NCBI GenBank assembly: GCA_022705465.1
Contig: JAKJEK010000001.1
Location: forward strand, 1-27,964
Reading direction: 5' to 3'
Source: Patescibacteria group bacterium
GTDB taxonomy: Bacteria; Patescibacteriota; UBA1384; XYA2-FULL-43-10; 1-14-0-10-43-13
DNA length: 27,964 bases
Position 1 is the first letter of the stretch. Every line of letters begins with the position of its first letter. Made by a program: the position numbers and the translations under genes. Under the pieces are notes generated by a model. The model was not told where the DNA came from and searched no databases. It saw nothing but the letters and a program-made list of their open reading frames with translations. Below are positions 16,150-19,072 of this stretch, piece by piece.

Positions 16150-18384
16150 TTAAATGTTTACTTCGAAGATGTTACCATCGGAAAGTATCCACAATTTTTG
16201 TAATTTTGAGTTAACAACAAAGTCGTGAATTTGGGCGCCATCGAGAGTGTACTGATTTATAAACTCGCCGGTTTTGCTGAATTTGACAATGCGATTTTGT
16301 TTGTTGTCAAAGATATACAGATATGGAGTATCACTATTGGTAAATATGGAAGTTGGTTGTTCGATTTGAATATTAGGTACTGGAAGGGGCTTGAGTGAGA
16401 AGGTAGTTTCGTGTGTGCCACGAGTGAACTTGGTTACGGCAGTGTCGCTGTGAAGGACATAAATGTCGCCGTCTACGGCCAGGTCGATTGCATTGCTGAG
16501 TGATGGTTTACGTGAAGTAGTGTAAGCGCTGGCCTTTGAGTAGGTTGGTTTATGATCGGAGTATTTCCAGATCTGGTTTTCGGACGCATCCAACAGATAG
16601 ATGTTTGTTGAATAACTGCCGATTGCATTCGCGTTTTTCCAGATGCCTTGTTCGTCCTCCGTCGCTACTTCACTAAAGGTGCTGGTTAGTGGATCGTAGA
16701 GCAACACTTTGTTTTTATCGGTGTATATGAATACTTTATTGGTGTTGTGCGAATTCGTGAGGTCAACTGCGGTACCGTATTCTTTGCCAATTGAAGCGAC
16801 TAGTCGCGAATCCCAGTCTTGAGTATGGGTGGAATATATTTTCCCGTTATCACCTATTCCAAGAATTTCTGAACTAAAGAGGGTAAACTTTTTGATATTG
16901 TTGCCAAGTGCTGTTGCTGGTGACGAAGCGTAGACGCGTTCTGTCGCGGTTAGATTGTCGAGTGATAGTTGGATTTCTTTGACGAGTTGAGCGGAGCTGT
17001 CTTTGGTTGGAGCATATTCCAGCGATTTTTGTGCGGTCTCCATAGCTTGATACATTTTCTCAACTCCACCAGTTTTACCTAGGGCAACGTCCTCTTTGGC
17101 AGCGTTGAACAATACTCTGGCTTCATCGTATGATTTAGCAAGGGTATTCTCCTGTATCATTTGCTGCTGAGCTGTGCTTTTATTGTGAATTTTTAGGTAA
17201 ACACCTAAGACGAGAATGGCAATCAAAGTGGCATAAATATACTTGCGGTTCTGTGGTTTTGGCAGTGACCTGACAAATGAACCAATTCGATTAAGAATTG
17301 CTTGAACTGCTGGTGAAGTTTTCCCGACAATTTGACTAATAAGTGATCGGTAGCCGCTAGTTGTGTGTTGTTTTATTGTGTTAAGGGCGGAGGAGTCACT
17401 AATTTTGGAAGCCGCCTTGTGGGCAATTGGTTTTATGGCTGGTGAAATGTTGTCACTGATTTTTTCAGCACGTTTCTTGCCTTTACTGATTAATTCATGA
17501 CTTTTAGGGCCATACTTATCGTGCCAGGACTGTTGAAAGGAGCTGATTAAACGACCGGTGTTTTCCTTTGTCCAGCGATAAGAACTTGCGGTTTGTTTAA
17601 CGATTTTGTCCTGATACGGGGTGATATTTCGCCTGAACTTTTTCAAGGGTGTGTCGATGGGGTCGTCTAAATAAAATTGTTCTGGAAGATCATCCAAGGT
17701 TTGATTTGAAGCTTCTTTTAAATTGATGATTTCAATGGAGATGGCATTAAGATTGGTTACCTTCAGTCGTCTGAAATATAGGTAAAGTTCATTTATTATG
17801 GTTTTAGCTGTGCCATTGGCACTCATTTTTCTTAAACGGTCGAGCGAGAGGTGATTATATAGCTCGTTAGTGCCCAGAATAATGCGATCTCCTTCACTGA
17901 CTGATCCACTGATAACATTACTGAAGGCTTGTTTTGATGATGGCGGTTCGTGCAGGCTAGGGCGTTCAGTGATCGTAGAGATTTTACCGTTGCGATAGAT
18001 ATGGCCGGAGACACTTCCTGTTTGAGCGAGTAGGATTTCTTCGTGCGTTGCCAGACCGATGACTGCATTGAGATTGCCTATCCAATCTTTTTCACCACTT
18101 TGGGCTAAACTGCCGAGAGACTCATTAATCTTAACAATAATGTCTTCAAACAGCTCTTCAAGTGGTTTGTTGGGGTCATTGATTTCGTAATTATCAATGG
18201 TTTTGGTAATCGTTTTGGGGACTTTGGTTGAGGGAAACCAGGGACATAGGACCTCAATCAAATAGAAAAAGAATGCTTGGGGCATTTTCTCTTTATCGAT
18301 TTTTCCGCTGAATAAAAATCGGTCTGAGGTTTTTCCTCTAACCGTTAAATAGGCTGATCTAGTAATAATGTCAGATTTAGCCAT
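16150..18384 (-). CDS. Bitopic membrane protein: N-terminal PP2C/PPM-like domain, linker, TM, extracytoplasmic helical segment and NHL-like beta-propeller
   Basis: LNAVIG...ILLAQTG...IYRNGKI and GDRIILGTNEL fit a PP2C-fold pattern; TM YIYATLIAILVLGVYL; repeats such as AIDLAVDGDIYVL and YLYIFDNKQNRIVKFSKTG. GGAG upstream of ATG. Confidence 0.7.
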   Translation of the reverse strand: MAKSDIITRSAYLTVRGKTSDRFLFSGKIDKEKMPQAFFFYLIEVLCPWFPSTKVPKTITKTIDNYEINDPNKPLEELFEDIIVKINESLGSLAQSGEKDWIGNLNAVIGLATHEEILLAQTGSVSGHIYRNGKISTITERPSLHEPPSSKQAFSNVISGSVSEGDRIILGTNELYNHLSLDRLRKMSANGTAKTIINELYLYFRRLKVTNLNAISIEIINLKEASNQTLDDLPEQFYLDDPIDTPLKKFRRNITPYQDKIVKQTASSYRWTKENTGRLISSFQQSWHDKYGPKSHELISKGKKRAEKISDNISPAIKPIAHKAASKISDSSALNTIKQHTTSGYRSLISQIVGKTSPAVQAILNRIGSFVRSLPKPQNRKYIYATLIAILVLGVYLKIHNKSTAQQQMIQENTLAKSYDEARVLFNAAKEDVALGKTGGVEKMYQAMETAQKSLEYAPTKDSSAQLVKEIQLSLDNLTATERVYASSPATALGNNIKKFTLFSSEILGIGDNGKIYSTHTQDWDSRLVASIGKEYGTAVDLTNSHNTNKVFIYTDKNKVLLYDPLTSTFSEVATEDEQGIWKNANAIGSYSTNIYLLDASENQIWKYSDHKPTYSKASAYTTSRKPSLSNAIDLAVDGDIYVLHSDTAVTKFTRGTHETTFSLKPLPVPNIQIEQPTSIFTNSDTPYLYIFDNKQNRIVKFSKTGEFINQYTLDGAQIHDFVVNSKLQKLWILSDGNIFEVNI

Positions 18385-18581
18385 AAATCTCCGTTCCTAG
18401 AAATAACCCTCAGTTTGGACAGAGTTACTGATCTAAATTCTGTATTTATCTGAGGTTGCAAGAATTGTATAAGGCCTGTCGGTAACAGTAGGTACTACAA
18501 TTCATTTTACCAAAAAGGACCAACAAACAAAACCTTTGCCGCGGGCAAGTGAATGAATTTGCGGTGGCAAATGCCGGAGTG

Positions 18582-18610
18582 ATGCAAAAACGTCGAAAGT
18601 GTGTTAATAT
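18582..18610 (+). promoter_or_regulatory. sigma70-type promoter upstream of the candidate ncRNA
   Basis: ATGCAA (18582-18587), 17 nt, TAATAT (18605-18610), with TG at the extended -10 position. Predicted start about 18616-18617. Confidence 0.55.
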
Positions 18611-18615
18611 GAGGG

Positions 18616-18778
18616 TGCTCCGCTGGGACGTAAATTGGGCGAACATTTATAATCAGGGTTTCTATAATGGAACTGCTCTAACAACTGTTGGAGTTGGACT
18701 TATATCTAACCAAACCGTGGTTTGGTTGTGCGGTCACCCACTTGGGCTTTGCGGCCAATTTATAGTTTCGGCGGAGCA
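18616..18778 (+). ncRNA. Candidate structured ncRNA (6S RNA-like or novel)
   Basis: 18616-18638 pairs with 18755-18778 (23 bp, one bulge, four G-U pairs), extendable by 5 bp, with internal hairpins. The helix starts at the predicted TSS. Identity is not established. Confidence 0.6.
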
Positions 18779-18851
18779 AATTCAGCGAGGAAATGATGTT
18801 AATACATAATGGGCGGTAGGCCTTTTGTTGTTTTAATTCAGGTTGAGAATT

Positions 18852-18927
18852 CGGGGTGTAGCACAGTTGGTAGTGCGCTGGGCTGGGGGTCCAGAGGTCC
18901 GCGGTTCGAGTCCGCGCACCCCGACCA
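18852..18927 (+). tRNA. tRNA-Pro (anticodon GGG), CCA encoded
   Basis: Acceptor CGGGGTG/CACCCCG, D stem GCAC/GTGC, anticodon stem CTGGG/TCCAG with loop CT-GGG-GG, T arm CGCGG-TTCGAGT-CCGCG, 3' ACCA. Confidence 0.98.
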
Positions 18928-19072
18928 TCCTTTATTTCCACCTTTATTCTGACAAATTGGAGCCACGGTGGACTCGGGAGTTACGGGTATGGGTCGTTGT
19001 TGGGTAAGAATGTGTTTGTGGTAGTGCGTTTATTTTTGTCGGTAAACAGACCAACTGGGTCTGAAGTACATG

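Follow-up and report, generated by a model that had tools for sequence, protein, structure and literature searches.

A probable divergent 6S RNA gene upstream of tRNA-Pro(GGG) in a Patescibacteria genome

The window, by which we mean the whole stretch of 27,964 nucleotides that was analysed, is from a Patescibacteria genome (G000; ~0.95-Mb assembly in 158 contigs). The locus of interest consists of a promoter, a structured RNA, a short spacer and a tRNA-Pro(GGG) gene, and its features are listed in Table 1. The genes around it encode a 744-aa membrane protein of unknown function, a GT4 glycosyltransferase, an M50 peptidase and a zinc-finger protein, and give no functional clue. The gene for the 744-aa protein (16150-18384, minus strand; no Pfam match) is a conserved neighbour of the RNA gene, found at 24 of 30 loci. 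It lies divergently upstream in the family to which the window belongs, and downstream on the same strand in the sister family. An ORF of 86 codons (18549-18809, plus strand) that overlaps the RNA has no Pfam match.

Table 1. Features of the RNA locus and of its downstream partner (positions in the window)
Feature	Position	Strand	Basis and remarks
Promoter: -35-like ATGCAA (18582-18587), 17-nt spacer, extended -10 TG-t-TAATAT (18602-18610)	18582-18610	+	Read from the sequence
Probable 6S RNA (ssrS) gene, Patescibacteria type	18616-18778	+	~163-167 nt; fold, R1 score of 154 bits, loci shared by R1 and RF00013
Closing stem, 5' strand, with near-invariant UAAAUUGG at the top	18616-18641	+	Pairs with 18752-18778; by analogy, the putative downstream-duplex strand copied by RNAP into pRNA
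Central bubble, 5' strand, AACAUUUAUAAUCA	18642-18655	+	Unpaired in consensus folds; aligns with AU-rich gAaaauuuuuauaaua of Rfam 6S; by analogy, the putative pRNA template and start region
GGG of helix P2a, apical edge of the bubble	18656-18658	+	Pairs with CCC 18737-18739; RNAalifold on short forms
Two lineage-specific inserted hairpins (~18659-18672 and 18675-18694)	18659-18694	+	Covary (helices 4 and 5)
Apical module	18697-18735	+	Helices 6 and 7
A-CCC (3' strand of P2a), then central bubble, 3' strand, ACUUGGGCUUUG	18736-18751	+	6S signature: CACCCACUUGG
Closing stem, 3' strand, CG-G-CCAAUUUAU-A-GUUUCGGCGGAGCA	18752-18778	+	MFE fold, covariation
Spacer preceding the tRNA; contains a weak 4-bp hairpin and U-rich run at ~18811-18835	18779-18851	+	Fold of the spacer; 73 nt
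tRNA-Pro(GGG), conserved downstream partner	18852-18927	+	ARAGORN, Rfam

A preliminary description of this DNA, made from the letters alone, had proposed a long helix of 23 bp with one bulge, formed by 18616-18638 and 18755-18778. This helix was reproduced exactly as the minimum free energy (MFE) fold of the plus strand, where it is lengthened by C18640-G18641 pairing with C18752-G18753. The MFE of the plus strand (18610-18785) is -71.6 kcal/mol, compared with -46.1 +/- 3.9 kcal/mol for dinucleotide shuffles (z -6.56, n=200), and none of the 200 shuffles was as stable. The minus strand folds much more weakly (-47.5 kcal/mol, z -3.7), and R1, a covariance model built from six relatives that all belong to the window's family, scores 154 bits on the plus strand of the locus and 28 bits on the minus strand. 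Both the fold and the score therefore agree with the earlier choice of the plus strand as the functional one, which had been made on G-U pairs that occur on that strand only.

The interior of the RNA had been described as an open bubble holding several independent hairpins, and this picture has to be replaced. Comparison of relatives gives a central bubble of the 6S type and an apical stem, with two lineage-specific hairpins that, in the window copy, branch off between helices P2a and P2b. Of the three inner hairpins that had been proposed, the first, at 18676-18693, does exist, but it had been drawn one position out of register, with a loop of only 2 nt; the hairpin spans 18675-18694. The second, placed at 18708-18727, is also present and spans 18707-18728. 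It corresponds to P3, in which 18707-18715 pairs with 18720-18728 under a CGUG cap. P3 is separated from P2b (GACU 18697-18700 with GGUC 18732-18735) by an asymmetric internal loop, UAUAUC / UGC. The third, a ccca/tggg hairpin at 18737-18746, was not borne out, as only 63 % of the cells are paired and covariation is zero in the comparison. Instead, CCC 18737-18739 pairs with GGG 18656-18658, and the same pairing, GGG-a-gccc / gggc-a-CCC, is present in the Rfam 6S consensus.

Homologues of the folded region were recovered by BLASTN from several genera within the window's family, and an RNAalifold consensus of six relatives, computed on a MAFFT alignment, contains 51 pairs, 22 of them with compensatory changes. 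Wherever R1 matches a genome it does so exactly once, and this is the case for 36 of 44 genomes of the order (30 of the 33 that are of high quality) and for 60 of 151 sampled genomes of the class. In a 151-genome sample of the phylum, 22 genomes have a match, again a single one each, and 17 of these lie outside the window's class. The alignment of 30 sequences leans towards the structure, because it was fitted to the model. Standard pairs fill 88.5 % of pair cells (67.6 % when shuffled), and double-sided changes are seen in 46 of 51 pairs, compared with 33.2 +/- 2.2 in shuffled alignments (46 is reached in 0 of 500) and 22-30 when the partners are slid by 1-3 columns. The closing stem (helices 1-3) has double-sided changes in 21 of its 24 pairs; pairing in the apical helices 6 and 7 reaches 93-96 %, with such changes in each of their 13 pairs. 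The MAFFT-based folds, which are independent of the model-fitted alignment, agree with its structure. The conservation and covariation in relatives that the preliminary description had proposed as a check are present, and the locus is a real, strand-specific, single-copy RNA gene, neither a repeat nor a coding region.

Not all members of the order have the full-length form. Ten of the 30 are short forms of 127-137 nt, which do not include the two variable hairpins. Their RNAalifold consensus (MAFFT alignment, n=10), with compensatory changes in 25 of 36 pairs, consists of a long closing stem topped by the near-invariant UAAAUUGG/CCAAUUUA, and a central bubble whose 5' strand is AU-rich and ~17-19 nt long and whose 3' strand, of ~15-18 nt, starts with ACUUGG. 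Above the bubble are P2a (GGG/CCC) and a covarying P2b of the GACC/GGUC type, followed at the tip by an asymmetric internal loop, CAAUAUUU / GUGM, and a covarying 9-bp hairpin with a CCGUGG cap. The CCCAC motif is invariant in 29 of 30 sequences from the order. At the other extreme, the copy in G021 (L049:1501-1731) reaches 231 nt owing to the insertion of a perfect ~90-nt hairpin at the P2 junction.

The promoter is as had been described, ATGCAA and TAATAT separated by 17 nt. TAATAT (18605-18610) ends 5 nt before the closing helix and, since TG is found two bases upstream, it is an extended -10 box. The position of the -10 box is conserved, with at least five of six bases matching TATAAT in 26 of 30 relatives and TGn in 16 of 30. 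The -35 box is weak (ATGCAA, 3/6 matches), and for this reason a generic consensus scan found no full sigma-70 promoter match at the locus. From the conserved extended -10, the start of the RNA is placed at the first bases of the closing stem.

Downstream of the stem, the weak hairpin and U-rich run that had been noted at 18811-18835 are present, though the stem is of 4 bp only, and a terminator scan called none on the plus strand of the spacer. The 3' end of the window RNA would probably be formed either at this hairpin and U-run or after read-through into tRNA-Pro, with RNase P cleavage at the 5' end of the tRNA and trimming back to the stem. Many homologues (L047, L055, L059, L064, L083, L084, L094 and others) have 4-6 consecutive U residues immediately behind the closing stem, so that the stem itself may act as an intrinsic terminator; the window copy does not have this run. 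A tRNA-Pro gene on the same strand lies within 130 nt downstream in 14 of 30 members of the order, with gaps of -2 to 55 nt, and tRNA-Pro is found within 400 nt in 13 of 38 genomes from other orders or classes (in G072 tRNA-Pro(GGG) is 14 nt downstream). As the RNA and the tRNA are only 1-10 nt apart in several genomes, an RNase P cut at the tRNA 5' end would there make the 3' end of the RNA. In the other 16 of the 30, no same-strand tRNA-Pro is found within 130 nt, and the tRNA of G021, G245, G280 and G259 is encoded on the other strand. In G011 (L025:1640-1726), a tRNA-Pro-like gene downstream of the RNA gene has an apparent insertion of at least ~25 nt after the anticodon region, with the layout CTGGG, CGCCGCCCAGAGGGCTCTGCCCGGCG, GGGGTCC. 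ARAGORN called no tRNA at this position, and the gene could be an intron-bearing or a disrupted tRNA.

The relationship of this RNA to 6S RNA is indirect. With Rfam 15 at the gathering cut-off, only tRNA-Pro(GGG) was found in the window, and a permissive search (E <= 10) of 18400-19000 and of the 186-nt core matched neither RF00013 nor any other family, so that 18616-18778 is without an Rfam assignment. RF00013 also gave zero matches in 20 related loci of the order and class. However, RF00013 and R1 match the same locus on the same strand in nine genomes, all outside the window's order. The scores in bits, RF00013 then R1, are 73.2 and 40.7 in G292, 60.2 and 26.3 in G207, 48.2 and 45.7 in G275, 41.7 and 42.8 in G072, 40.9 and 25.6 in G191, 37.6 and 24.9 in G257, 31.3 and 26.5 in G258, 31 and 26.9 in G180, and 30 and 16 in G142. 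Of these, G292, G207 and G275, which belong to other classes, exceed the RF00013 gathering threshold of 46.4 bits, and the window copy is below it. The E-values of R1 at the RF00013 loci are as low as 7.8e-8 per genome, and 1.7e-9 in a search of two loci. Seven of the nine genomes (G292, G207, G275, G191, G257, G258 and G180) are from the phylum sample. The remaining two, G072 and G142, contain the only two RF00013 matches in the 151-genome class sample, and both are at R1 loci. RF00013 revealed no further 6S candidate in G000, and none above the cut-off in the 151 class genomes.

Shared motifs point in the same direction. At the bubble, the Rfam 6S consensus reads '...CCgAaaauuuuuauaauaGGGagccc' and 'gggcaCCCACCUgg...GGuUCaA', and its counterpart in the window is GGGCGAACAUUUAUAAUCAGGG and GGUCACCCACUUGG...GGCCAAUUU. 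The signature of the window bubble is an AU-rich 5' strand followed by GGG, with ...CACCCACUUGG on the 3' strand, and the CCCAC region matches 'caCCCACCUgg' of the Rfam consensus. The conserved bubble flanks, GGGAGCC on the 5' side and GGC-A-CCCACCUGG on the 3' side, are present in the window at 18637-18659 and 18732-18746. The rod fold, made up of closing stem, central bubble and apical stem-loop, is also present, with the two inserted hairpins added in the window copy. The apical module (YCAAUAUUU, a hairpin with a CCGUGG-type loop, GUGMGG) is likewise found in the Rfam-positive 6S RNAs of other classes, and Rfam-positive Patescibacteria RNAs carry, one after the other, UAUAUUU, the CCGUGG-type hairpin and GUGCGG. 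Synteny with tRNA-Pro is shared as well. The window copy is too divergent and too branched to be matched by RF00013, and its membership of the 6S family therefore rests on transitive homology via R1 and on these shared motifs.

On this comparative sequence evidence, we conclude that 18616-18778 (plus strand) is very probably the single 6S RNA (SsrS) gene of the genome, of a divergent Patescibacteria type. The preliminary description had left the choice between a divergent 6S RNA and a new class of non-coding RNA. The former is favoured by an RNA that is conserved, covarying and single-copy, has a conserved promoter and is homologous to loci recognized by RF00013. Counting against it are the lack of an RF00013 match for the window copy, the branching of its apical part by two hairpins, unlike the simple 6S rod, the appearance of the modelled release hairpin as the MFE structure in only about half of the relatives, and an apical internal loop and hairpin loop that are far more conserved in sequence than is usual in 6S RNA. 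This last feature could reflect an additional or different partner. The lack of a direct Rfam 6S match for the window copy and the unusual sequence conservation of the apical module across the phylum would also suit an undescribed housekeeping RNA that merely resembles 6S, for example one serving as scaffold for a protein that is specific to Patescibacteria and recognizes both the apical loop (CAAUAUUU/GUGM) and the hairpin loop CCGUGG. We consider this very unlikely, as the same module occurs inside RNAs that score above the Rfam 6S cut-off (G292, G207 and G275), the bubble motifs fit the 6S consensus, and R1 and RF00013 coincide in nine genomes. An RNA like Ms1, which would be 6S-shaped but bind core RNAP in place of the sigma-containing holoenzyme and tune the level of RNAP and not the use of promoters, would account for the failure of RF00013, given that Ms1 is reported to be a structural relative of 6S that takes its place in lineages without a 6S match in Rfam (PMC9130861). 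It is nonetheless a very unlikely explanation: the relatives are homologous to RF00013-positive RNAs, the 3' side of the bubble keeps the canonical 6S motif of the CCCACCUGG type, and the Rfam scans matched the RNA to no other family.

The position upstream of tRNA-Pro in 14 of the 30 order members, and in other classes, raises the question of whether the RNA might not be independent but act in cis, as a leader of the tRNA-Pro(GGG) transcript or an element for its processing. We regard this as highly improbable, because 16 members have no same-strand tRNA-Pro within 130 nt, four genomes have the tRNA on the opposite strand, many homologues have their own U-run straight after the closing stem, and the conservation is that of 6S RNA. 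A palindromic repeat or MITE could explain the long inverted repeat, and the overlapping ORF could be a real gene, yet there is exactly one copy per genome, changes are compensatory and G-U pairs are on one strand only. Moreover, indels and insertions of whole hairpins fall out of codon register and the ORF is without a Pfam match, so we give these two possibilities practically no credence. The size and the long-hairpin shape are compatible with a highly divergent SRP (4.5S) RNA, and neither the small nor the large bacterial SRP model of Rfam (RF00169 / RF01854) found an SRP RNA in five genomes of the family. This identity has next to no probability either, as the RNA does not contain the GNRA-AGCA motif of domain IV and its protein partners Ffh and FtsY are missing. 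Three further candidates were rejected. RNase P RNA was found elsewhere in the genome (in four of four good genomes), and the window RNA is therefore not RNase P RNA. A T-box on the minus strand, suggested by the resemblance of CCAAGUGGGUGACCGC to a T-box sequence, was dismissed because the minus strand folds and scores far worse and the G-U pairs are on the plus strand. Likeness to 5S rRNA or to a K-turn, seen by eye, had no Rfam support and the wrong order of motifs.

SRP RNA is excluded on the ground that these genomes lack Ffh and FtsY. Neither an SRP54-type GTPase (Ffh/FtsY) nor an Ffh M domain was found in the five family genomes, and neither a full-length SRP54-type GTPase nor an M domain in the 151-genome phylum sample. 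In the class sample of 151, a full-length SRP54-domain match was found only in G091 (an assembly of 190 contigs), and the other 56 SRP54 matches were weak and covered a P-loop of ~50 residues. A tBLASTn search of G000 with genuine Ffh found nothing, and a crude scan for the SRP domain IV pattern returned only noise. SecY, used as the control, was found in five of five genomes, which indicates that the method works on these genomes. Many CPR bacteria lack SRP subunits (PMC8080830), and the absence here is an already known trait.

If the window RNA is a 6S RNA, its mode of action can be proposed by analogy. In E. coli 6S and B. subtilis 6S-1, the rod with its bubble mimics an open promoter in the active-site cleft of the RNAP holoenzyme with the primary sigma factor (PMC8876501). 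The window RNA would occupy this holoenzyme in the same way, with the closing stem acting as the downstream duplex, the apical stem as the upstream '-35' side and the 3' strand of the bubble (CACCCACUUGG) as the non-template '-10' strand. When NTP levels rise, the 5' strand of the bubble and, in the closing stem, the UAAAUUGG strand would serve RNAP as template for a short pRNA. Synthesis of the pRNA would free the 3' strand (GG-CCAA...), which may then pair with UUGG/GGCU of the 3' bubble to form a small hairpin, and the RNA would be released. Typical 6S RNAs are ~200 nt long, and a 6S-1 truncated to 78 nt still cycles in vitro (PMC8876501), so that natural forms of 127-167 nt are plausibly large enough.

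A hairpin that begins directly after CCCAC covaries across the phylum, with CCUGG/CCAGG, CCUAG/CUAGG, CCUGA/UCAGG, CUUGGUU/AACCAAG and other pairings. Within the order to which the window belongs, the 3' arm of this hairpin (GACCAA) doubles as the top of the closing stem, and the two structures are therefore mutually exclusive. When the presumed template strand was masked in the folding model, the 3'-bubble hairpin was the MFE structure in 11 of 21 relatives; the window copy formed a GGCU/GGCC hairpin instead. This modelled refolding would parallel the release hairpin that forms in the 3' bubble of E. coli-type 6S RNA.

We do not regard this as a new kind of RNA, since Rfam already recognizes 6S in some other Patescibacteria lineages. 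What is particular to the lineage is the apical module, the short forms and the linkage to tRNA-Pro(GGG), which extends across the phylum. More tentatively, and with somewhat less than even confidence, these features might define a distinct subclass of 6S RNA, with a conserved apical module (internal loop YCAAUAUUU / GUGMGG and a hairpin of 8-9 bp under a CCGUGG cap) at the site of the '-35' mimic, forms as small as ~127 nt, and a dicistron of 6S and tRNA-Pro(GGG) that is matured by RNase P. The module is conserved across the phylum at a site that is elsewhere a loose '-35' mimic, and in such a subclass this would imply a contact peculiar to the lineage, made with sigma region 4 or else with an additional protein. 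Among the papers covered by the literature search, none dealt with 6S RNA in CPR/Patescibacteria. The gene takes the place of the "missing 6S" in an entire class of ultra-small bacteria, which annotation based on Rfam had left blank and, as these organisms have very few regulators, a global RNA brake on RNAP may rank among the chief means by which they control growth phase. From the family come a covariance model, the shortest natural variants of 6S and a conserved arrangement of 6S and tRNA-Pro, which suggests maturation dependent on RNase P. To 6S specialists, the conserved apical module offers a testable clue to the reading of the "-35" side.

The window RNA and its relatives resemble the 6S/SsrS RNAs of RF00013, such as E. 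coli 6S and B. subtilis 6S-1, in having a closing stem, a large central bubble and an apical stem-loop, an AU-rich strand on the 5' side of the bubble that leads into GGG(A)GYCC, a 3' side of the form ...GRC(A)CCCAC(C/U)UGG, and the potential for a small 3'-bubble hairpin that overlaps the downstream helix. There is likewise one gene per genome with its own promoter of the sigma-70 type, and relatives in other Patescibacteria classes pass or approach the Rfam cut-off at the homologous locus. They differ from RF00013 RNAs in that the window copy is invisible to the model and carries two extra hairpins on the apical stem, in the phylum-wide sequence conservation of two apical loops, the internal one and CCGUGG, and in the conserved downstream tRNA-Pro(GGG). 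Compared with the typical 6S RNA of ~200 nt, the Patescibacteria relatives also include forms of 127-137 nt. 6S-Flavo (RF01685) is a lineage-specific 6S model that is kept separate from RF00013 in Rfam, and is a precedent for a 6S subfamily at the level of a phylum that has diverged too far for the general model and needs a covariance model of its own. The window RNA did not score against RF01685 in the all-Rfam scans, and it differs from 6S-Flavo in both taxon and apical module. Ms1, an RNA found in Actinobacteria, is ~300 nt long, binds core RNAP and, to our knowledge, has no RF00013-positive homologues. Common to Ms1 and the window RNA are a 6S-like rod with a bubble and an occurrence where RF00013 fails (for Ms1, as reported in PMC9130861). 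Unlike Ms1, however, the Patescibacteria family does have RF00013-positive homologues.
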